NCBI RefSeq assembly: GCF_001746915.2
Contig: NZ_CM124774.1
Location: 2,078,707 to 2,118,706, forward strand
Length of the DNA stretch: 40,000 nt
Direction of reading: 5' to 3'
DNA from: Desertifilum tharense IPPAS B-1220
Lineage (GTDB): Bacteria > Cyanobacteriota > Cyanobacteriia > Cyanobacteriales > Desertifilaceae
In this document: in pieces, positions 4,196 to 35,395 of the stretch
Layout of the letters: every line of letters begins with the position of its first letter
Numbering within the stretch: position 1 is the stretch's first letter
Made by a program: the position numbers and the translations under genes
Notes under the pieces: model-generated
Database searches by the model: none
What the model was told of the DNA's origin: nothing
Seen by the model: the letters and a program-made list of their open reading frames with translations, nothing else

Positions 4196-5803
4196 TCAAC
4201 CAATGCCCAGAATTTGCCGCAACAGGGCTAGCTCTTTAGAAGCGGGTTGAAAACGACCCCGTTCCACATCGCGCACCCAACTCTGGCTTTTGCCAATTTG
4301 ATGGGCGAGCGCCCGTTGACTGAGCTGGAGCTGTTTGCGTGCCTCTGCAATTTGTGGGCCGGAAAGCGTGAATTGAGAGGAGAGTAATAACTGAGTGCGG
4401 CTTTTGCGACGGCGCGTTTGTTTGGCTTTCGCCGAGGTCGGTTTTTGCCAATCGTCCGGTAACTCAAAACGCAGCAAACGAGCATTCATCAGGCGGTTCC
4501 ATTTGCCTTTAGGAGCCGCATCAGTGAGCCGAGAATTGCGATCGCCATCATTAATCCAAAATTCTAGCGCCGCTTCTGGATCGTCTGGTAAATCGGCAAG
4601 TTTAGCCCACAGGGGTTGAATTTCCACCGGGTAAGTTACCGGATCGAAAATGGGTTTAATGCCGTAGTGGTTTAACACCTCTAAATCGCTTTCAAAAGCT
4701 CGCAGCAACCGCTTTCTCCCTTCGAGTTGAGTGGAAACCTGCATTAACTTTGTTTCCCCGTAAGCCACTCGCATCAGGGTGGGAACGGTAATGCGCTGTT
4801 CTTGTCCCATTTTGGTTTTAAACAACAACCACAACAGGATACGGGCAGCTCCTTCGTGTTGCTGCCAAATGCTCATAATGTTAGCGAGCAGCGTTTTGGG
4901 TAGCGTTCCGTATTGATAAAAAGCCGTCTGCTGTTTGGAGCCTTTGCGGTTTAAGAAGTAATAAGCCCATAACCCAGCTTTGATTTTAAAGGTTAAACCC
5001 GTCAGATGCTTGCATCCGAGTTCGTCTTCTTGAAAATAATGTTCGATGTCGAGCAAATACCAGAGGCGGCTGGCGTTTAGGGAAAATCCCTTCATTTTTC
5101 CCTGCGACTGCCACTGGAGAGTGACGGAAATTTTGCACGGCTGTTGAGCGAGTTCTTTAATTAAGCTTAATTTGGCGGTTTTGCTGAGGTCTTTGCGTTT
5201 GTCTAGACCGAGGTAGGTTTCAATTTGGCGATCGCTAATGCTAAATTCCTGTTGCCACGGCTGTTCGAGTGCAGTGGCATAGGCTGCATAAATCAAATGC
5301 AGACAAGCCGCCCGAATATCAAACCCCTCCAGCGCCGTCAACGCCTCTGGCGCATCTAACGCCACGCAAGGCTGAGAATCAAACGCATCCGTCACCTGGA
5401 ACGTCATTAAACTCTGACCTTGGTTAACCTGGCGTTGATAGTAAAGTTTTCCCTCGCTATCGGTGCGCCACGGAAGCGAGTCGCGTTGGGCCAAAATGTT
5501 GCACAATTCCCAAATGGCGATCGCCGAAGCAAAAGAATTCGTCTTACCATTAGCAAACAAGTCAGGCTGCGTTGGCGTTCTCTGCGTTGTCTTGCATCTC
5601 CCTTTTTTCGCCTGAAGCGGAATTGGAGAGTCTACAGGACAAACCAGCTTGCACTGCGGCTCTGGATAATACCCCTCGCAATTGTTACATAGCGTTGGGT
5701 CGATCCAAAACTCCTGACCCTCAATCTGAGAAATCGCCCCCGTAGGGCAAAGCGGAATACAAGTATCGCACTGAGTACACCGATTGGTAATAGCGTAAGG
5801 CAT
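4196..5803 (-). CDS. cnfR: CnfR/PatB-type nif transcriptional activator (N-terminal 2x[4Fe-4S] ferredoxin-like domain, C-terminal XRE HTH)
   Basis: 535 aa. The N-terminus (CTQCDTCIPLCP ... CNNCEGYYPEPQCKLVCP) resembles fdxN. The C-terminus is LSGPQIAEARKQLQLSQRALAHQIGKSQSWVRDVERG (HTH_XRE). This architecture matches PatB (Anabaena) and CnfR (Leptolyngbya boryana). Confidence 0.85.
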   Translation of the reverse strand: MPYAITNRCTQCDTCIPLCPTGAISQIEGQEFWIDPTLCNNCEGYYPEPQCKLVCPVDSPIPLQAKKGRCKTTQRTPTQPDLFANGKTNSFASAIAIWELCNILAQRDSLPWRTDSEGKLYYQRQVNQGQSLMTFQVTDAFDSQPCVALDAPEALTALEGFDIRAACLHLIYAAYATALEQPWQQEFSISDRQIETYLGLDKRKDLSKTAKLSLIKELAQQPCKISVTLQWQSQGKMKGFSLNASRLWYLLDIEHYFQEDELGCKHLTGLTFKIKAGLWAYYFLNRKGSKQQTAFYQYGTLPKTLLANIMSIWQQHEGAARILLWLLFKTKMGQEQRITVPTLMRVAYGETKLMQVSTQLEGRKRLLRAFESDLEVLNHYGIKPIFDPVTYPVEIQPLWAKLADLPDDPEAALEFWINDGDRNSRLTDAAPKGKWNRLMNARLLRFELPDDWQKPTSAKAKQTRRRKSRTQLLLSSQFTLSGPQIAEARKQLQLSQRALAHQIGKSQSWVRDVERGRFQPASKELALLRQILGIG

Positions 5804-8297: not shown

Positions 8298-8402
8298 CTC
8301 AATTCTCTTCTCTGGGTGAGTAGATGGGGCTGGTTGGCTGAAAAAACTGCTGAAAGTTGTAGTTGGATTAGCGTTAGCGAAACTCAACAACAGCTAGGGT
8401 TA

Positions 8403-8433
8403 TGTTGGGTTTCGTACCTCAACCCAACCTACG
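8403..8433. repeat. GTTGGGTT-loop-AACCCAAC hairpin repeat (copy in the hesA-nifW spacer)
   Basis: TGTTGGGTTTCGTACCTCAACCCAACCTACG is identical to 31874-31904. It has an 8-bp stem and a 9-nt loop. Confidence 0.8.
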
Positions 8434-9534: not shown

Positions 9535-9942
9535 TTATACCGTTACTTCTTCTAATTCATCCAGGGTGTGGGATTGCTGTTTCAAGACTTTGCGTAACCA
9601 GGGGGGAGGATTGCCGTTGAGGGTTTGGACTAATTTATTGAGAATTTCAATAATTTCGTCATCCTCGCTATTGGCTTTAATGGGGGTAACGTTCCGGCGA
9701 ATCAGGCGGGCGGCGGCGCTTCCCCCAATGGCAGAAACATAAACAATCGTGCAATCTGCTAGGGCTTCGAGTTTTGGGACTAATTTGTCTTCGTTCCCGT
9801 CTTCTTTGAGGTCGCCAGCAAATTCAAGCGTTTCGATAAACTGGAAGCCTTGGGGGGTGACATCATAGACGGCGAGTTGTTTAGCCCACCCGAAATGAGC
9901 ATTAATGTGAATCAAATCATTGGTGGCGAAGGCTATTTTCAT
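9535..9942 (-). CDS. nifX: NifX (FeMo-cofactor intermediate carrier)
   Basis: 135 aa. MKIAFATND...[13 protein letters not shown]...[17 protein letters not shown] matches the NifX/NafY fold family. The start overlaps the nifEN 3' end by 26 nt. Confidence 0.85.
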
Positions 9943-12793
9943 GGTGCTTCTCCGTTTCCATCTCTAAAAATAAGTTGCCAATCTCAAACAAAAGCTGCAT
10001 AGTGCCGCGATAGCCAATGGTGGTGCGTTGGCCGTTACCCAAGCGGTCAAAGATTGGAAATCCGAGGCGATAGAGGGGTATATTGAGACGATGAGCGATC
10101 GCGCTGGCGTTGGAATTCGCAATCAGCAAATCACTTCCCACGGCGAGTTGCTCAAAGTCATCTAAATCGCCAATCGTCACGGTTTCAATCGGCAAATTTT
10201 CCAATAAAGGAGATTTGGTGGTGGTGACTGCGGCGTGAATTTCTGCCCCCATGAAGTGCAACCACCAAGCAATGGAGTACAGTAAATCCGGTTCTAGGGC
10301 CAAAGATACCCGCTTGCGACCTAAATAGAAGTGAGTATCGAGCATGGCATCTTGCAACTGGCGGCGCATTCTGCGGTACGTGTCTGGCACGTCTACCCCA
10401 CTCAAATCGCTTAAAGCCTGCAAAAATCGATCGACCGCCTCTAACCCAGTCAGTTGGGGGAAAACCTCGTAGGGAATGCCAAAGCGCTGTTCGAGGATAT
10501 CGGCGGCTGTTCGCATACTTTCCCCGATAGCGAAGGTATAGACAGAACGCCCAATATTGCGTAACTGAGCAACGGTGGTTCCTCCCGCCGTCACCGCGCT
10601 GTAGCTATCTTCTAAATGACCATCCAAAGAGTCCGACAGATCGGGGACAATAATAGCAGTTAGGCCAAACGCTGCGATCGCATCCTTGAGTTCTTGCACG
10701 TCGCCTGGAGTGAGGGCAGGCCCGGCTAAAATGGTAATTTGATCGGGTCTAGCAGAGTTAACCAGGGGCAGTTCCTTCACTAAACCTTCCACTGCCGCCG
10801 CAAACCCATCTTGCAACGAGCCTTTAAAGTCTGCTGTAGAAACCAATACAATCGGCAACTCCTCATCTGTGGGAGTCTGACTCAATAGCTGAGGCTGGCG
10901 TTTGCGGAACTCGCGCAGAATTCTTTCCATATCATCCCCACGGGTTTCCGTTAGCCCAGTGGTGCATAATCCAATGATTTCTGGCTTAAACTTCTCCACA
11001 ATCGTCAGAATTGCCTGTTCGACATTCTCTTCCCCACCTAAAATCGTGGTAACTTCCGTCATCGCCGTCGTTGCGAGGGGAATAGCTTCCCGGAAATGCC
11101 GCACTAGCATGACTTTGGCAAACGCCGTACAGCCTTGGGAACCGTGAAATAAAGGCATCATCCCCTGAATTCCCAAGAAAGCCAGCGCCGCCCCCAAAGG
11201 TTGGCTTTGTTTGAGAGGATTAATTGCGATCGCCTTTTTCGGAGTCACAATTTGAGTAGGAGGGTGGGGGGAAAGGAGTGCAAAGTTCCGAGTTCCAAGT
11301 TCCGAGTAAGGAAGAGGGTGGGGGGATGGAGACTTTGCTGCTAACTTCTCACTCTCTTCCCACTCAGCACTCAGCACTTTACACTCAGCACTTAGAGAAG
11401 CACTCAGCACTTTACACTCAGCACTCTCTTCCCAAGGGGCTACCTGCCGCACTTGCTGCCAGATGGGACTGTAGAGGGCTTCTTCCAACTCTCGCGCCAT
11501 TTCCACCATGCCTGCATACCCGGCATAGGAATGATGGCGTTCCTGGTTAATATCTAAAAAGGGAATTCTGGCTTTTAGGGCGGTGTATTGGTTGCGTCCG
11601 CCTGCAATCAGCATATCAGCGTTGGTTTGGGCAATGACGCGCAGCAATTCCTGAGCGTTGCCCTTTTCCAACATAATCCCATCTTGACCGAGCAAGAGTT
11701 TAATCCGCGCCTTATCTTCTTCCGTGCTTTTCTTGGTACTGGTGGCTACCACCTGCATCCCCAAGTCCTTCGCGGCTGAGACAATCGACCAACTTTTAAC
11801 GCCGCCCGTATAGAGAACCACCCGCTTTCCTTGCAGGCGATCGCGATAGGGTGCTAAGGTGCGATCTAAAGTTGCCGTTTCCTCTGCAATCAGGCATTCT
11901 ACCCGGTCTTGCAAATCCGCATCGCCCAACTTTAGCGCCACATTTCGCAAACAGCGATTCATATCCTCAACACCGTAGAACGACTCCTCAATGTAAGGAA
12001 TGCCATAGCGTTCTTCCATCTTGCGGGCCATATTAATCAACGCTTTAGAACAAATCATCACGTTGAGTTTGGCGCGATGGGCATAGGCGATTTCTTGGTA
12101 ACGAGCATCGCCCGTAATTTTCGCAAGAACTCGAATCCCTAGCTTTTCAAATAGGGGTAAAACATTCCACAATTCCCCGGCAATGTTATATTCCCCAATC
12201 AAATTAATATCGTAGGGCGTCGTATATTCCGGTTCTGCGGTACCCACCACATATTCCAGTAAGGCTTCGCCCCCTACCCGATTTCCCAAGTTCTTGCTAC
12301 CAATAAAACCAGGAGAATTCACCGGAATAATCGGCGTCCCCGTCTTTTTCGCCGCCTTTTGACACACCGCATCCAAGTCATCGCCAATTAAAGCAGTAAC
12401 GCAGGTGGAATAGACAAAAATTGCGGCGGGTTGATAGCGCTGTTGGACTTCCAAAATAGATTGATACAGGCGCTTTTCACCGCCAAAAATCACATCATTT
12501 TCGGATAAATCGGTCGTGAACCCCATCTTATAGAGCAAAGGGCCAGAGGAAAGACTGCCGCGACTGCCCCAGGAATTCCCCGCACAAGCAATCGGACCGT
12601 GAACTAAATGAGCCGCATCCGTAATCGGAACGAGGGCAATCATCGCGCCATCAAAGGCACAGCCCCCTTGCGCTGCACCGGGTTGCGCTTGTTGGGTACA
12701 GGCTTTATTTTTCTTGTCTCCGTGCTTCTGGTGGTTGTGTTCGCAACCCGGTTCAGTCAGCAGTTCTTTAATTTTGCCTTGGGTCATTTTCAT
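9917..12793 (-). CDS. nifEN: Fused NifE-NifN FeMo-cofactor scaffold (single ORF)
   Basis: Uninterrupted 958 codons. Residues 1-454 are NifE (GCAFDGA..., ...[34 protein letters not shown]). Residues ~515-958 are NifN ([41 protein letters not shown]...). Residues 455-514 are repeat-derived. Confidence 0.9.
11252..11431 (-). repeat. Mosaic heptamer-repeat copy embedded in frame between the NifE and NifN moieties
   Basis: The sense strand reads GGGAAGAGAGTGCTGAGTGTAAAGTGCTGAGTGCTTCTCTAAGTGCTGAGTGTAAAGTGCTGAGTGCTGAGTGGGAAGAG...CCATCCCCCCACCCTCTTCC...CGGAACTTGGAACTCGGAACTTTGCACTC...CCCCCCACCCTCC. The same modules occur at 24217, 30082, 34261 and 35153. Confidence 0.9.
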
Positions 12794-16473: not shown

Positions 16474-17692
<1,219 letters not shown>

Positions 17693-17695
<3 letters not shown>

Positions 17696-18571
17696 GATGG
17701 CTTCAACAACTAAGGTGGGTAGAACGCGTTCTTGCAATCTGGCTTCCACCGCTATTTTGAGGGTGGCGGTACTGGAGGAACAGGAACCACAGGCCCCTTT
17801 GAGGACAACTTTCACGGTGTTTCCTTCCACGTCGTAAAGTTCAACATCGCCACCATCTGCCATTAATACGGGACGGACTTCTTCATCGAGGACGCGCTGA
17901 ATTAAGGTAATCTTTTGAACGATTGTTAGCGGCGGTTGGGGAATGGCTTCGCGCAGGGCAATTTCTGCGGCTAGGGTTTTGGCTTCCTTATAGAGATCGG
18001 TGAGGACATCTTCAATAGCGGCTGCACAGGAACTACAACCCCCTCCGGCTTTGACGTAGCTGGTGACTTGTTCGACGGTGGTGAGGTTATTTTCAATCGC
18101 CACGCGCCGGATCTTGTTTTCGCTAACGCCATAGCAAGCGCAGATTAAAGCCCCTTCATCTTCTTCGTGATGTTCGATTTCAATGCCGCGATACTTATAA
18201 ATGGCGGCTTCTAGGGCTTCTTGTCCCATTACAGAACAGTGCATTTTGGCTTCGGGTAGTCCTCCGAGATAATCGGCGATCTCTTTGTTGGTGACGTGCA
18301 GCGCTGCGTCTAAGGTGAGTCCTTTAATGAGTTCAGTCAGTGCTGAAGAAGAAGCGATCGCGCTGGTGCAGCCAAAGGTCTGAAAGCGGGCATCCAGAAT
18401 TTTATCGGAGGCGATATCAATCTGAAGATGCAGTCGCAGCGCGTCTCCGCAAGCAATGCTACCCACTTCGCCGAAGACAACGGCAATTCCCGGTTCTTCG
18501 CAGGGTGCGATCGCGCCTTGGTTTTTGGGGTTATAGAACAGGTCTAATACTTTGTCGGTGTAGTCCCACAT
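17693..18571 (-). CDS. nifU: NifU Fe-S cluster scaffold
   Basis: 292 aa. IscU-like N-terminus (GSIACGDALRLHL), central 2Fe-2S region (LICACYGV...GGGCSSC) and Nfu-like C-terminus (GACGSCSSS). Confidence 0.95.
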
Positions 18572-23393: not shown

Positions 23394-23628
23394 ATGTCAG
23401 CTCTTGGTTTCCCGGTGCGATCGCTGGCGCATCCACCATCGCTTGCAAGAATTAAGCATCGTCTGCTCTTGTCCCGCCGACGGTTCGCTGCAAGTCGAAG
23501 TGCATCATGGCATTGATTTAATTCTAGTTCGCAGTACCGTTCAGCAATTTACCGCCTCTCGTCAAGAACTGGTGAGTTGGTTAGAACGATGCTGGCTTGC
23601 TTCTACAGAAAAAACAGCTTGCTCTTAA
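23377..23628 (+). CDS. Small conserved nif-cluster protein (resembles what I recall as the Asr1405/Asl0597 family)
   Basis: 83 aa with an ATG start. It overlaps the nifP 3' end by 17 nt and lies between nifP and dps, as in other cyanobacterial nif clusters. Confidence 0.5.
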
Positions 23629-24206: not shown

Positions 24207-24216
24207 GCGTTTCTAA

Positions 24217-24535
24217 GTGCTGAGTGTAAAGTGCTGAGTGCTGAGTGGGAAGAGGGTGGGGGAAGTGAGTGCTGAGTGTAAAGTGCTGAGTGCTGAGTGG
24301 GAAAGAGGGTAGGGGAAAGAGTGCAAAGTTCCGAGTTCCGTAGCTTGCTTCCGCGTAGCGGTGTTCCTAGTAGGAAGACAGTGCTGAGTTAATCGTTACC
24401 AAGTTTTCCTAACTCCTCTTCCCCCAACTCCTAACTCCCAATTCCCAACTCCCTTCTTCCCCCCACCTCCCCATCCCCCCACCTCCTCTTCCCCCAACTC
24501 CCAACTCCCAATTCCCAACCCCCTTCTCCCCTGGA
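24217..24535 (+). repeat. Mosaic repeat copy in the dps-nifV spacer
   Basis: 2 x GTGCTGAGTGTAAAGTGCTGAGTGCTGAGTGGGAAGAGGGTGGGGG, then AGTGCAAAGTTCCGAGTTCCGTAGCTTGCTTCCGCGTAGCGGTGTTCC, then C-rich CTCCTAACTCCCAATTCCCAACTCCC modules. It begins 10 nt after the dps stop. Confidence 0.9.
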
Positions 24536-26431: not shown

Positions 26432-26444
26432 ATTTGGGAAATTG

Positions 26445-26471
26445 CCCCTAAATGAAAGTTTAGGGGTTTTT
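26445..26471 (+). terminator. Rho-independent terminator after nifT
   Basis: CCCCTAAA-tgaaag-TTTAGGGG followed by TTTTT. Confidence 0.75.
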
Positions 26472-27603: not shown

Positions 27604-30081
27604 ATGACAATTTCACCGATAAAACCTCAAACCCCGGCTTCAAGTACGTCTAACAACTGGGCAACTGTAGAGGAAAGTCCACTAACACCGGACGAACTGA
27701 ATAAAATCAATGCTTACTGGCGGGCTGCTAATTATTTATCGGTGGGACAAATCTATTTATTAGATAATCCGTTACTGAAAGAACCCCTAAAACTCGAACA
27801 TATCAAACCTAGATTGCTCGGTCATTGGGGAACGACACCGGGTTTAAACTTTATTTACGCTCACCTCAACCGCGTCATTAAACGAGATGACCTGGATATG
27901 ATTTATATTGCAGGGCCAGGTCATGGGGGGCCGGCTTTGGTAGCAAATGTTTACTTAGAAGGGACGTATAGCGAATATTATCCCGACATTAGCCAGGATG
28001 AGGCGGGTATGAAGGCCTTGTTTAAACAATTCTCCTTCCCCGGCGGTATTCCTAGCCATGTGGCCCCAGAAACTCCGGGTTCCATCCACGAAGGCGGCGA
28101 ACTGGGTTACGCGCTGTCTCACGCCTATGGCGCGGCGTTTGATAACCCCGATCTGATTGTCGCTTGTGTGGTGGGCGATGGGGAAGCAGAAACCGGAGCA
28201 TTAGCCACTGCTTGGCACTCTAACAAATTTCTCAACCCAATCGGCGATGGGGCTGTTTTACCGATTTTGCACCTGAATGGGTATAAAATTGCTAATCCTA
28301 CGATTTTGGCGCGTTTAACTCAACATGAGTTAGAAAGCCTGTTTGTTGGCTATGGCTATAAACCCTATTTTGTGGAAGGGTCAGATCCAGAAACCTTGCA
28401 TCAGTATATGGCGGCGACGGTGGATCGAGCGATCGCCGATATCCGTTCCATCCAGCAACAAGCGCGTACCCAGGGGTTGCAAGGTAGACCTTGTTGGCCG
28501 ATGATTATTTTGCGATCGCCCAAAGGATGGACCGGACCTGCTGAAGTGGATGGAAAGAAAACAGAAGGCTATTGGCGATCGCACCAAGTCCCTTTTTCTA
28601 ATATGGCTAATAATCCCAACCATATCGCGCTATTGGAAAACTGGATGAAGGGTTACAAACCTGAAGAACTCTTTGATAAGAACGGTACGCTTATTCCCGA
28701 ACTCGCAGAACTGGCCCCTAAAGGTCATCGTCGCATGGGCGATAACCCCCACGCCAACGGCGGTTTATTACTCAAAGCCCTAAAAATGCCTTCTTTTCAA
28801 AACTATGCGGTTGAAGTTCCCGAACCCGGAACCACGATCGCCCAGGCAACAAAGGTAATGGGTGAATTTCTGCGCGATATTATTAAACTCAATTCCCGTA
28901 GCTTTCGCTTATTCGGCCCGGATGAAACCGCCTCTAACCGCCTAAGTGCCGTATTTGAAGAGAGCGATCGCACCTGGCTAGCCCAAATGTATCCCGACGA
29001 CGATCATCTGTCTACCGACGGTCGAGTTATGGAAGTCTTAAGCGAACATACCTGTCAAGGATGGTTAGAAGGATACCTGCTAACAGGTCGTCACGGCTTA
29101 TTCTCTTGCTATGAAGCCTTTATCCACATCATCGACTCAATGTTTAACCAGCACGCCAAATGGTTGAAAACAACCAACGATATCATCTGGCGGCGTCCCA
29201 TTGCTTCCTTAACCTACCTGCTAACGTCCCATGTCTGGCGACAAGATCATAACGGCTTTTCTCACCAAGATCCCGGCTTTATTGACCATGTTGCGAACAA
29301 AAAAGCCGAAGTCATCCGCGTTTACTTACCCCCAGATGCCAATACCTTACTCTCCGTTACCGATCACTGCTTGCGGAGTTGCCAATATGTCAACGTCATC
29401 GTCGCCGGAAAGCAACCCGCCTTGCAATATCTGGATATGCCTTCAGCCATTAAACACTGTACGAAAGGAATCGGGATTTGGGAATGGGCTAGCAGCGATC
29501 GCGGTGCAGAACCTGACTTGGTGATGGCTTGTGCGGGCGATGTTCCCACAATGGAAACCTTAGCAGCAGTCGATCTCCTCAGACAACATTTCCCAGAACT
29601 CAAGGTGCGCGTCGTCAATATCGTAGACTTAATGAAGTTGCAGCCCGAAAGCGAACATCCCCACGGCTTAAGCGATAAAGACTTTGATGCCATCTTCACG
29701 ACAGATAAACCGATTATTTTTGCCTATCATGGTTATCCTTGGCTGATTCATCGCTTGACCTATCGCCGGACTAACCACCATAACTTGCACGTTCGCGGCT
29801 ATAAGGAAGAAGGCACCACAACAACGCCGTTTGATATGGTGGTCTTGAATGAGTTAGACCGCTTTCACCTGGTTATGGATGCGATCGATCGCGTTCCTCA
29901 ACTGGGTTATGCGGCGGCGTATATCAAGCAAATGCTGCAAGATCGCTTAATTGAACACCAGCAATATGTCCGCCAGCATGGAGACGATCTCCCAGAGATC
30001 CGCAACTGGAAATGGCCCTACAGCAGTCCCGCAAACGCTAGCAATGGGGAGTCTGAGAGTCATTCCTCGCCATCTCATTAA
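27604..30081 (+). CDS. xfp: Phosphoketolase (xylulose-5-P/fructose-6-P)
   Basis: 825 aa. ...[20 protein letters not shown]...[10 protein letters not shown]...[15 protein letters not shown]...GDGEAETG. Confidence 0.95.
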
Positions 30082-30230
30082 GTGCTGAGTGTAAAGTGCT
30101 GAGTGCTGAGTGAGAAGTAAGTGCTGAGTGTAAAGTGCTGAGTGCTGAGTAAGTTCCGAGTTCCGAGTTCCGAGTTCCGAGTTCCGAGTCGGGAAGAGAG
30201 TGCTGAGTTAATAGTTACCAAGTTTTCCTG
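30082..30230 (+). repeat. Mosaic repeat copy starting at the xfp stop (GTGCTGA and GTTCCGA heptamer modules)
   Basis: TAA|GTGCTGAGTGTAAAGTGCTGAGTGCTGAGTGAGAAGTAAGTGCTGAGTGTAAAGTGCTGAGTGCTGAGTAA, then 5 x GTTCCGA in tandem, then GGGAAGAGAGTGCTGAGTTAATAGTTACCAAG. Confidence 0.92.
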
Positions 30231-30450
30231 TCTCTTCTTCCCCCCAACTCCTAACTCCCAATTCCCAACTCCCCTCTTCCCCCCAACTCCTAACTCCCAA
30301 TTCCCAACTCCCCTTTTCCCCCCAACTCCTAACTCCCAATTCCCAACTCCCCTCTTCCCCCCAACTCCTAACTCCCAATTCCCAACTCCCCTCTTCCCCC
30401 CAACTCCTAACTCCCAATTCCCAACTCCCCTCTTCCCCCCATCCCCCCAT
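30231..30450 (+). repeat. Tandem array, 5 x 39 bp (AACTCCTAACTCCCAATTCCCAACTCCCCTCTTCCCCCC) with partial flanks
   Basis: Units start at 30246, 30285, 30324, 30363 and 30402, giving an exact 39-bp period. Only one substitution was seen (unit 2: CTTTTCC versus CTCTTCC). No unique spacers. Confidence 0.95.
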
Positions 30451-30573
30451 CTCTCAGAGTGAGGAAGGTTGTTTAGATACAGCCGAATTTGAAAATAAAC
30501 CCTAAAAATAGGGGATTACCAAAATGCTGGTGTATGTTTCCTCTGAGTGGGTCTGCATAAAGGAATTTGCGAC

Positions 30574-31826: not shown

Positions 31827-31904
31827 CGTAGGTTGGGTTAGCGTCAGCGTAACCCAACACTCGCGACTAGGACTGTTGGGTTTCGTACCTCAACCCAACC
31901 TACG
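31827..31904. repeat. Composite of two GTTGGGTT/AACCCAAC hairpin repeats in inverted arrangement
   Basis: CGTAGGTTGGGTT (31827-31839) is perfectly complementary to AACCCAACCTACG (31892-31904). Each half also forms its own 8-9-bp hairpin. Confidence 0.8.
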
Positions 31905-31928: not shown

Positions 31929-31960
31929 TAAAAAAGGATAGGCGTATAACCTATCCTTTC
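31929..31960. terminator. Bidirectional rho-independent terminator between convergent tal and petA
   Basis: AAAAAA-AGGATAGG-cgtataa-CCTATCCT-TTC. The T-run is strong on the minus strand (petA) and weaker on the plus strand. Confidence 0.65.
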
Positions 31961-32037
31961 TAATATTGCTAGTTGACTAATCTCCCTAAAAGCGGGAATT
32001 GAAAAAAGAAAAAGACTGACTTCTCAACTTCTAATTC

Positions 32038-32084
32038 TGCACTCAGCACTCAGCACTTTCTACTCAGCACTAAAAGAAGCACTA
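32038..32084 (-). repeat. Short mosaic-repeat copy starting on the petA stop
   Basis: The minus strand reads TAGTGCTTCTTTTAGTGCTGAGTAGAAAGTGCTGAGTGCTGAGTGCAG. Confidence 0.8.
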
Positions 32085-33724: not shown

Positions 33725-33954
33725 GACCTCAGATGTTTGTATGTGTTAGCTTATGTGTCTATAGTCAACGACGTTTTGCTCTTAGGTTCGCAAGAAACTT
33801 CACCGCTTGAATGCAGGGAGTGCTTCAGCCCTCTAAGTAGCCATCTTTTTTCTTGCAATACGCAGTTTACCGTCTTTCTGAGAGCATTATTACACTTTTT
33901 TACAGGCTAACGAGATTCTAAGCTAAAGAAATGTAAACAAGGAGTGAATCCTCA

Positions 33955-34263
33955 ATGACAGGACAGGACTTACGCCAGTTATTGCTGCAAAAATGGGGCT
34001 GCTCTTATGACATCCAACTCCGACAGACGCAAGGGAAAGTGTTTGTACAAGTGATGTGGAAGTATCTAGAGCAAGCTTCTTTTCCCCTGTCCGAAATTGA
34101 GTATATCCAGCGTCTAGACCGGGTGGCAACGTATCTCAATGACTGGGGATGTATCGAACGGGTGCGAACTTACATCGAACAAACTCGCGATCGCCCCCGT
34201 TTGGGTAAGGCGGTTAGCATTCCTGTCGAATTAGGCGATCGCGCTTCGGAATGGATCTTGTGA
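33955..34263 (+). CDS. DUF3067-family conserved cyanobacterial/plastid-lineage protein
   Basis: 102 aa, AAGGAG Shine-Dalgarno upstream. MTGQDLRQLLLQKWGCSYDIQLRQTQGKVFVQVMWKYLEQASFPLSE. Confidence 0.7.
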   Translation: MTGQDLRQLLLQKWGCSYDIQLRQTQGKVFVQVMWKYLEQASFPLSEIEYIQRLDRVATYLNDWGCIERVRTYIEQTRDRPRLGKAVSIPVELGDRASEWIL

Positions 34264-34341
34264 GTACCGAGTTCCGAGTGGGAAAAGAGTGCTGAGTGTA
34301 AAGTGCTGAGTGCTGAGTGGGTTTAAGAGTGTTGAGTAAAG
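34261..34341 (+). repeat. Mosaic repeat copy starting on the DUF3067 stop
   Basis: TGAGTACCGAGTTCCGAGTGGGAAAAGAGTGCTGAGTGTAAAGTGCTGAGTGCTGAGTGGGTTTAAGAGTGTTGAGTAAAG. Confidence 0.85.
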
Positions 34342-35101: not shown

Positions 35102-35152
35102 CACTCCCCTGGCTAAAGCCGAGGGGATTCTACATTCACAGACTCACCGATA

Positions 35153-35395
35153 ACCCTCTTCCCCACTCAGCACTAACTTCCCCCACCCTCTTCCCCACTC
35201 GGAACACCACCACGCGGAAGCAAGCGCAACAGCACTTTAAACTCAGGACTAAGAACCCCACTCAGCACACCGCTACTTGGTGTGCAAGCTACAGCACTTT
35301 ACACTCAGCGCTCTTTCCCCCCACCTCCCCATCTCCCCATCCCCCCACCCTCTTCCCCACTCAGCACTCAGCACTCAGCACTCAGCACTCACTTA
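35153..35395 (-). repeat. Mosaic repeat copy starting on the stop of the 35393-35866 ORF
   Basis: The minus strand reads TAAGTGA, then 4 x GTGCTGA, then GTGGGGAAGAGGGTGGGGGGATGGGGAGATGGGGAGGTGGGGGG...GCTGAGTGTAAAGTGCTG...CTTGCTTCCGCGTGGTGGTGTTCCGAGTGGGGAAGAGGGTGGGGG. Confidence 0.85.

Follow-up and report, generated by a model that had tools for sequence, protein, structure and literature searches.

A polar family of heptamer-repeat elements next to stop codons in Desertifilum tharense and its probable turnover in place

For 35 years cyanobacteria have been known to carry tandem heptamer repeats. The STRR heptamers of Calothrix, Anabaena and Nostoc were reportedly described by Mazel et al. 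in 1990; their units are said to be CCCCAGT (STRR1), TTGGTCA (STRR2) and CAACAGT (STRR3), the first and last being AGT-phased like the repeats treated here, and the class was reportedly claimed to be confined to heterocystous cyanobacteria. Small dispersed repeats (SDR), attributed to Elhai et al. 2008, are said to be 21-27 nt long. Here we describe a family of mosaic heptamer elements in 40,000 nt of DNA from the non-heterocystous filamentous cyanobacterium Desertifilum tharense IPPAS B-1220 (the window; coordinates are window positions), where seven copies, c1 to c7, occupy 3.6% of the sequence. Full copies consist of a G-rich arm of tandem heptamers, a short conserved hinge and a C-rich arm, and some carry mini-inserts. 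The reading that we favour, with a probability of roughly 0.6, is that these are polar heptamer arms which turn over in place, have a role in 3' untranslated regions (3' UTRs) or between cistrons, and lie next to stop codons through built-in stops and the filling of available space. The family provides quantifiable rules that any mechanism must explain: arms begin within a few bases of stops, the G-rich strand leads away from the gene, and the arms are imperfect complements of each other.

STRR (Mazel et al. 1990) are cited in passages of PMC2670836 and PMC4692102. Hairpins of this class occur in the hupS-hupL gap, where they have been proposed to affect how stable the transcript is or to couple translation, and one is cited in Lyngbya (PMC2670836), so that a restriction to heterocystous hosts, which Desertifilum does not obey either, is outdated. 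Judged from sequence, the Desertifilum elements are best placed as a lineage-specific addition to this class of STRR or long simple-sequence heptamer repeats. They share with STRR the tandem heptanucleotides (Tandem Repeats Finder gave period-7 arrays at 7/7 sites), many dispersed intergenic copies (6 of the 7 in the window, and 31 further loci in the metagenome-assembled genome (MAG) of Desertifilum sp. SIO1I2), hairpin potential and a location between co-transcribed genes, as at hupS-hupL. They differ in their non-heterocystous host and in their heptamers; no tandem CCCCAGT, TTGGTCA or CAACAGT occurs in the window, in line with an earlier sequence-only reading of this DNA that had seen an STRR-type mosaic with units unlike STRR1-3. 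They are also mosaics with G-rich blocks, a hinge and strict polarity, traits that may likewise set them apart. In the papers that cite STRR and SDR we found no earlier description of the arm polarity, the hinge, a translated copy in nifEN or a 22- to 31-mer shared across phyla.

The G-rich heptamers GGGNATC and GGGGA(C/T)T of Xanthomonas and Nostoc PCC 7120 occur 0-50 bp from stop codons on the coding strand, overlaps with the stop included, and 0-50 bp from start codons on the non-coding strand (Rehm et al. 2015, PMC4692102). These repeats always have the open reading frame (ORF) nearer to the 5' end of their G-rich strand, a geometry that the Desertifilum arms share. The units are different, the Desertifilum arms are paired, and most of them do not seem to be G-quadruplex motifs, the GATGGGG blocks being the candidates. 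TAACTGA repeats in forward orientation contain a stop in each frame and extend over stop codons (MacGregor 2015, PMC4679880). Our elements resemble these repeats of Beggiatoaceae, Cyanobacteria and Bacteroidetes in their all-frame stops, their overlap with ORF ends and their patchy distribution across phyla, whereas the TAACTGA repeats lie mostly just upstream of starts in short uniform arrays without mosaics; no TAACTGA array is present in the window. REP/BIME, REPIN and MITEs (ERIC, NEMIS/Correia, Nezha) are likewise small non-coding intergenic repeats, often in 3' UTRs and with hairpin potential, but the elements described here have expandable tandem arms and no defined palindrome, terminal inverted repeat, or linked RAYT or transposase. 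The mini-insert (23 copies of 22-25 nt, with five presence/absence differences between species) resembles SDR in size, dispersal and presence or absence at orthologous positions. SDR were reported only in Nostocaceae (PMC5861425; summarised also in PMC3116915), unlike the Desertifilum mini-insert, and repeats of the REP and MITE kind are transcribed and able to alter mRNA stability (PMC3733652).

By exact protein matches (D. tharense IPPAS B-1220 and FACHB strains) the window belongs to Desertifilum. It covers a nif region (fused nifEN, nifX, nifK, nifD, nifH, nifU, nifS and nifB) together with dpsA, nifV, nifZ, nifT, xfp, a transaldolase gene, petA, petC, a DUF3067 gene, a TetR-family gene, secA and feoAB. 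All seven sites listed in the sequence-only reading were recovered where it had placed them or close by, and its gene identities for xfp, nifU, petA, dps and DUF3067 proved correct. The copies are as follows:

11252..11433, minus strand: c1, two-armed, translated in frame within the NifE-NifN linker (from the translation and a NifEN model match of 1441 bits)
17504..17692, minus strand: c2, two-armed, in the nifU-nifH gap, flush on the nifU TAA (SIO1I2 ortholog: TAA, then GTTCCGAGTTCCGAGATTAAG..)
24207..24530, plus strand: c3, two-armed, in the dpsA-nifV gap (hinge at 24381-24410; orthologous element in SIO1I2 contig L058)
30079..30453, plus strand: c4, full two-armed copy in the xfp-transaldolase gap, beginning on the xfp TAA (from its modules)
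32038..32084, minus strand: c5, one short arm in the petA 3' UTR, the TAG overlapping the first module (from its modules)
34261..34340, plus strand: c6, one arm after DUF3067, beginning TGA, then GTACCGAGTTCCGA (from its modules)
35153..35395, minus strand: c7, one long arm between convergent genes, in sense to and flush on the TAA of a 166-aa ORF

Throughout the window and SIO1I2, the G-rich strand read 5' to 3' leads away from each flanking gene, and two-armed copies therefore run G-rich then C-rich on both strands. This G-then-C pattern is its own reverse complement, so that a gene reading in from either side meets the G-rich, AGT-phased arm first. Among 38 elements with modules in both orientations the order '+ then -' was perfect in 34 and reversed in 1, and pairs of module matches agreed with the polarity in 2416 cases and disagreed in 22. 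A module-free GC-skew test on elements defined by an 11-mer repeat mask, which also served for the position statistics below, gave 24 elements of type L+R- and none of type L-R+. The same convergent geometry was present in 10/10 array pairs at Calothrix, Elusimicrobia and Gemmatimonas loci. The elements are compositionally inverted by strand around the conserved hinge, and the earlier statement that they lack terminal inverted repeats is valid at the level of sequence but not of strand composition. Sense orientation throughout, as it had been proposed, does not hold: the GTTCCGA and G-block modules of c1 are antisense to nifEN, and of the A/B module runs in SIO1I2, 22 agree in direction with the gene 5' of them and 14 face the other way. 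The single arms c5, c6 and c7 are each in sense to the gene whose stop they touch, and the apparent sense pattern at stops in the window arises from the dyad polarity, which is the actual rule.

The modules named earlier are all present and far more frequent than expected by chance (GTGCTGAGTG 27 times in the window versus 0.06 expected from shuffles, GTTCCGAGT 12 times versus 0.26), and there are five exact copies of the 31-mer GTGCTGAGTGTAAAGTGCTGAGTGCTGAGTG. In 73 arms (6 kb, window and SIO1I2) read in the G-rich orientation, composition was 49% G and 6.6% C, successive AGT triplets were spaced by 7 nt (n=293 cases), and ACT did not occur at all. The heptamers in AGT register are AGTGCTG, AGTGTAA, AGTTCCG, AGTGCAA, AGTTGGG and AGTTAGG, with AGTGCTG or AGTTCCG making up most of the arms; G-rich blocks (GGGAAGAGGGTGGGGG and GATGGGG) are interspersed among them, and in some copies, such as c7, GATGGGG/GGTGGGGG blocks contain at least four G-tracts. 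Reverse-complemented, the C-rich 39-mer yields AGT-phased heptamers of this kind (GGGAGTT, GGGAATT, AGGAGTT). Stop triplets occupy 5.8% of positions in the G-rich orientation versus 1.0% in the C-rich one. Heptamers of the G-rich arms have TGA or TAA at their ends, and (GTGCTGA)n shows a stop whichever frame is read. Because of this density ORFs cannot run into A-type arms, except that the 31-mer leaves exactly one frame open.

The second regularity concerns the distance to stop codons. In the window the element edge lies 0-4 nt from the stop at xfp (CAT TAA, then GTGCTGA), nifU (ATC TAA, then GTTCCGA), petA (TTC TAG, then TGCTTCTTTTAGTGCTGAG), the 166-aa ORF (CAG TAA, then GTGAGTGCTGAG) and DUF3067 (TTG TGA, then GTACCGAGTTCCGA). 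These five junctions agree with the earlier account; the offset of 10 nt that it gave for the dps copy disappears on comparison with SIO1I2, where the TAA is followed directly by GTGCTTCTCTAAGTGCTTCTCTAA and the window carries a degenerate TAAGCGTTTCTAA. For statistics we pooled the window with 31 SIO1I2 loci (204 kb, 153 predicted genes, gene starts being predicted too), in which SIO1I2 genes were called by codon usage trained and validated on the annotated genes of the window. Median distance from the element edge was 3 nt to stops and 66 nt to starts (Mann-Whitney p=0.011), and uniform placement in co-directional spacers was rejected (Fisher p=2e-5). An element lay no more than 15 nt from the stop in 43/153 genes, with a G-rich sense-strand arm in 37 of these 43 against a background of 49/110. 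Elements occupied 10 of 17 convergent spacers, 20 of 55 co-directional ones and 4 of 20 divergent ones. The association with stop codons is real and no small-sample accident.

At xfp the stop codon itself is supplied by the element, a possibility already raised for this family. The Xfp tail is not conserved (..SPSH* in the window, ..SPSQHGEEAGVRS* in SIO1I2); in SIO1I2 a G-block-like stretch encodes nine extra codons (HGEEAGVRS), the gene stops at a TAA belonging to the element and followed by GTGCTTCTCTAA, and both versions terminate on a TAA that precedes a GTGCT module. At tetR, a C-rich arm in SIO1I2 is flush on a stop codon differing from that of the window, where the boundary is a 54-nt spacer with a small hairpin that SIO1I2 lacks, and this difference supports a moving element boundary. 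By comparison, the NifU, PetA and DUF3067 proteins end at canonical C-termini, and the element therefore adjoins the native stop there. The tetR hairpin (CCCCTGGCTAAAGCCGAGGGG) stands at 35106-35126 (+), directly after the tetR stop. The dps stop of SIO1I2 is followed by TAAGTGCTTCTC at a 12-nt period with two extra in-frame TAA (L058 6544-6575).

The orthologous SIO1I2 contigs L052 (xfp to the TetR gene) and L058 (nifU to nifT) made a comparison in place possible, with genes about 95.5% identical to those of the window (about 90% at third codon positions). An element was present in both species at 6/6 comparable sites, the unique segments being near-identical and the c4 hinge identical in 56/56 nt. 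Within the elements the arrays differed. Units of GTTCCGA/GTACCGA numbered 2 in the window versus 6 in SIO1I2 after DUF3067, and 5 versus about 3 after xfp. The 39-mer amplification of c4 was limited to the window and missing at the orthologous SIO1I2 site, as was a 39-nt block in c6 (GTGGGAAAAGA+AaAA, with a 31-mer core), and the SIO1I2 ortholog of c5 is shorter with the same start. Presence of the mini-insert differed at five positions, being confined to the window in c2 and the c3 B-array and to SIO1I2 in the c3 A-array and both c4 arrays. Since the sites are occupied in both species and the arrays differ, the elements are old at their sites and fast-changing internally. The differences in unit number, 39-mer and mini-insert point to rapid turnover in situ, and the differing unit numbers at orthologous sites support a part for slippage, as had been considered earlier. 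Empty sites in a relative, which had been proposed for dating insertions, were found for the whole element at none of the six sites in SIO1I2. The loci hold a record of slippage, 39-nt amplification and gain or loss of the 22-nt mini-insert within about 5% coding divergence.

The 23 mini-insert copies (22-25 nt) fall into four sequence types, e.g. TAGCTTGCTTCCGCGTAGCGGT, and invariably follow GTGCTG or GTTCCG in the arm's own orientation. They contain GTAG motifs, and with stems of only 4-5 bp we rejected them as GTAG-tagged REP. Those mapped in the window are:

17658..17679, minus strand: 22-nt mini-insert in c2, identical to that of c3, missing at the orthologous SIO1I2 position
24341..24362, plus strand: 22-nt mini-insert TAGCTTGCTTCCGCGTAGCGGT in the GTTCCGA array of c3 (SIO1I2 site empty: GTTCCGAGTTCCGAGTTCCTAG)
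35206..35229, minus strand: 24-nt variant TTGCGCTTGCTTCCGCGTGGTGGT in c7
35269..35291, minus strand: 23-nt variant TAGCTTGCACACCAAGTAGCGGT in the GTGCTGA array of c7

Two-armed copies folded with z = -2.3 to -4.2 relative to shuffles, no significant folding relative to shuffles was found for the single-arm copies c5-c7, and arm-to-arm interaction averaged -40 kcal/mol against -8 for a same-orientation control. Between positions 23500 and 36000 no terminator-like site coincided with an element, no T-tract follows the elements, and petA has its own canonical stem-loop with T-tract at 31930-31961 (-), 120 nt downstream and beyond c5. The missing T-tract, the separate petA terminator and the translated nifEN copy speak against the element as a classical terminator, a reading that we reject. 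As modelled, the elements are likely transcribed as 3'-UTR or inter-cistronic RNA, and by analogy an effect on the stability of mRNA segments or on insulation is plausible. Another canonical stem-loop/T-tract terminator stands after nifT at 26444-26467 (+).

According to the favoured reading, the elements would be long resident at their sites and change by heptamer gain and loss through slippage, by 39-nt amplification and by gain or loss of mini-inserts. An in-register arm could overlap, replace or back up the stop of a gene. Arms would take up every unconstrained position as far as the coding boundary, about 60-200 nt before the next start being kept free for promoter and ribosome-binding site, and deletion of spacer and even of the native stop would be tolerated because the arm offers replacement stops. 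The RNA would fold into long imperfect hairpins and probably influence how stable individual mRNA segments are or insulate cistrons. Several points weigh against this account. The MAG behind the SIO1I2 data is fragmented, with contig ends at these very repeats, and the step of space filling or deletion is one that we only infer. A stop is found in only 130/219 arm frames, and (GTTCCGA)n is stop-free in every frame and yet lies flush behind nifU and DUF3067, so built-in stops are not enough for every flush junction. Local slippage alone could hardly yield the hinge and an identical 31-mer at many sites, other phyla included, which implies that conversion, recombination or transposition has carried them between loci to some extent. 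The structural part is weakened, as chimeric arm pairs bind better than native ones (-61 versus -40 kcal/mol, p=1.5e-5): with native pairs less complementary than chimeric ones, hairpin strength is not the optimised trait. This rules out a hairpin optimised in cis, and in the folding model perfect complementarity of the arms appears to be avoided rather than selected.

The same folding data bear on a selected RNA or DNA structure, i.e. a 3'-end hairpin or insulator acting in both directions against read-through or exonucleases, which we regard as possible but on balance doubtful. To our knowledge cyanobacteria lack Rho, and such an insulator would be useful there. The dyad polarity fits it, as a transcript from either side meets the G-rich and then the C-rich arm, and so do the folding z-scores and arm-to-arm energies of two-armed copies, the enrichment in convergent and depletion in divergent spacers, the hinge that is unchanged where third codon positions are about 90% identical, and the stability roles proposed for STRR hairpins (PMC2670836). 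Against it count native arms that pair worse than random combinations, single arms without significant structure, the missing T-tract beside a petA gene that keeps its own terminator, the translation of one copy in nifEN and the extremely fast internal turnover. A MITE-like mobile element that inserts at stop codons by recognising T-purine-A followed by G is, in our view, unlikely. Dispersed copies with a common hinge and an exact 31-mer would suit it, as would the mini-insert polymorphism, which indicates some mobility in the system, a Gemmatimonas copy that is also flush on a stop, and the last A of the stop serving as the A of the first AGT in 10/43 flush junctions against 8/110 in the background. 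However, the ends of the elements are different modules without sequence-level terminal inverted repeats, target duplication is ambiguous in the tandem context, and the window holds no transposase, as had been remarked before; 6/6 comparable sites are occupied in SIO1I2, flush junctions use TAA, TAG and TGA with varied modules, and arms adjoin the start-codon sides of genes too. The earlier suggestion of targeted insertion at gene 3' ends is neither needed nor favoured, because both species have the same sites occupied and a C-rich arm can adjoin a stop, as at tetR in SIO1I2.

We consider it a rather remote and speculative idea that the arms are polar arrays anchored at gene boundaries with growth or maintenance coupled to expression, or else selected all-frame stop or insulator cassettes, the likeness across phyla then reflecting a shared mechanism or a horizontally spreading element. 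In the expression-coupled variant arms would start where the ribosome leaves the mRNA, and naked G-rich RNA or a displaced G-rich strand (R-loop or slipped structures) would drive directional heptamer expansion. That likeness consists of the same AGT-phased 31-mer and the same convergent geometry in Cyanobacteria, Elusimicrobia, Gemmatimonadota and Chloroflexi. Random intergenic repeats unrelated to stops or strand are, within the limits of the sample, refuted: for the window alone, with just seven copies, seven sense copies out of seven would give a p of no less than about 1/64, and A/B orientation in SIO1I2 is 22:14, but the medians of 3 and 66 nt, the Fisher test, the 37:6 ratio of G-rich sense arms and the 24:0 skew count leave this explanation with almost no probability.

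A scan of species-representative genomes with GTGCTGAGTGTAAAGTGCTGAG gave 47 loci, 31 of them from the SIO1I2 MAG and the others from Calothrix, Nostoc, an Elusimicrobia MAG, Flexifilum/Anaerolineae and Gemmatimonas. Exact copies of the 22- to 31-mer AGTGCTGAGTGTAAAGTGCTGAG(TGCTGAGT) are spread over several phyla, at GC contents of 33-67%: in the Elusimicrobia MAG (L019, L022, L030, L048, L049), in Gemmatimonas-like sequences (L034, L059, L060), in Flexifilum (L043, L051), at L007, in Calothrix (L008, L016, L017, L046) and in Nostoc (L009, L026, L029). It mostly forms the 5' hairpin arm, the 3' arm being an inverted heptamer array, and at L034 the inverted arm is flush on the stop of a 371-aa ORF. 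By chance the 22-mer would be expected about 0.07 times, as calculated from the size of the genome collection, and its cross-phylum occurrence might go back either to horizontal transfer or to convergence. The hinge pattern was not found in JGI metagenome contigs, and the 22-mer in only seven metagenome contigs. Rfam gathering scans of the window and six foreign loci returned no family for the elements, and a BLASTN search of c3 against PLSDB plasmids gave no match, possibly owing to low-complexity masking.

The copy in nifEN differs from the others in being coding. The 958-aa ORF (9917-12793, minus strand) matches the NCBIfam NifEN fusion model with 1441 bits, and more than 100 fused cyanobacterial NifEN homologs of 897-990 aa exist, including an Anabaena variabilis protein. 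The Desertifilum NifE-NifN linker exceeds that of the closest homologs by about 45 aa, and the additional part corresponds to an A-type arm in its one open frame followed by a stop-free C-rich arm. The sequence comparison indicates an ancestrally fused gene, as in many cyanobacteria, with c1 in frame within the linker, so that the missing stop at nifE, earlier seen as a special case, is none. Separate nifE and nifN genes in another MAG were considered and rejected, the 'NifN alone' protein being due to a contig break inside the element. The linker is hypervariable across cyanobacterial fused NifEN proteins (P0034, P0041, P0048, P0051), and several other lineages have in it a period of 8 residues (..RGAGEQGSRGAGEE..) that resembles the translation of an 8-nt tandem repeat; from these sequences the NifE-NifN linker may be a general landing place for simple repeats.

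Copy c4 is the largest local copy of this Desertifilum family of STRR-class (long simple-sequence) intergenic elements. It is flush on the stop of ORF 27604..30081 (825 aa, xfp), and its distal edge near 30453 lies 93-95 nt ahead of an ORF beginning at 30547. The span of 30079-30230 given in the sequence-only reading was right in its sequence but took in only the 5' arm. Written in modules, c4 reads AaAA..AaAA-BBBBB-G-A, hinge, (39-mer)x5-CCCCCCATC: after the xfp TAA follow GTGCTGA GTGTAAA GTGCTGA GTGCTGA GTG.., a second such block and (GTTCCGA)x5, which Tandem Repeats Finder gives as x5.4 at 30152-30189. In many two-armed copies the arms are linked by the hinge ..GAGTGCTGA GTTRATNNTTAYCAAGTTTT CCTRYCTCTTCTTCCCC.., whose pattern GTTRAT..TTAYCARGTTTT fits 10 copies in the window and SIO1I2. 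The parts of c4 are:

30082..30207, plus strand: G/T-rich 5' arm of (GTGCTGA/GTGTAAA) blocks, then (GTTCCGA)x5 (from tandem repeats and module counts)
30200..30229, plus strand: conserved hinge GTGCTGA-GTTAATAGTTACCAAGTTTT-CCT (pattern GTTRAT..TTAYCARGTTTT)
30236..30441, plus strand: C-rich 3' arm, 39-mer TCTTCCCCCCAACTCCTAACTCCCAATTCCCAACTCCCC x5.3 (Tandem Repeats Finder, 98% identity)

Super-units of 39 nt (13 codons), a length that is no multiple of 7, recur in the C-type array at 30236-30441, in A-type arrays (GTGCTGAGTGTAAAGTGCTGAGTGCTGAGTGGGAATAGA) at L011 2679-2825, L037 7359-7505 and L041 4812-4936, and in the block inserted in c6.

In practical terms the elements cause breaks in short-read assemblies and spurious ORFs, and they can alter C-termini (xfp) or turn into coding sequence (NifEN linker). 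Short-read assemblies (Logan, MAGs) end about 25-150 nt from elements (L001-L004, L053-L057, L066), for which reason xfp, nifH and nifN stand at contig ends and NifN is mis-annotated as separate. The stop-free C-rich arms yield spurious ORFs of 80-106 aa that gene callers could annotate:

11278-11550, plus strand: spurious ORF
17518-17760, plus strand: spurious ORF
30142-30462, plus strand: spurious ORF
30208-30450, minus strand: spurious ORF

Two further observations concern the neighbouring spacers. In the divergent petC/DUF3067 spacer at 33725-33954 (L052 6273-6502), window and SIO1I2 agree in 100% of 230 nt, the flanking genes being 95-96% identical, which suggests strong constraint or recent conversion. 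The tal-petA spacer contains a GTAG-tagged, REP-like perfect palindrome at 31827-31904, with k-mers shared at 8381-8433. The same palindrome is present in SIO1I2 (L052 ~4440-4490; CGTAGGTTGGGTTA..TAACCCAACCTACG), the window version having a nested insertion of about 40 nt, and it represents a second, unrelated small repeat family.

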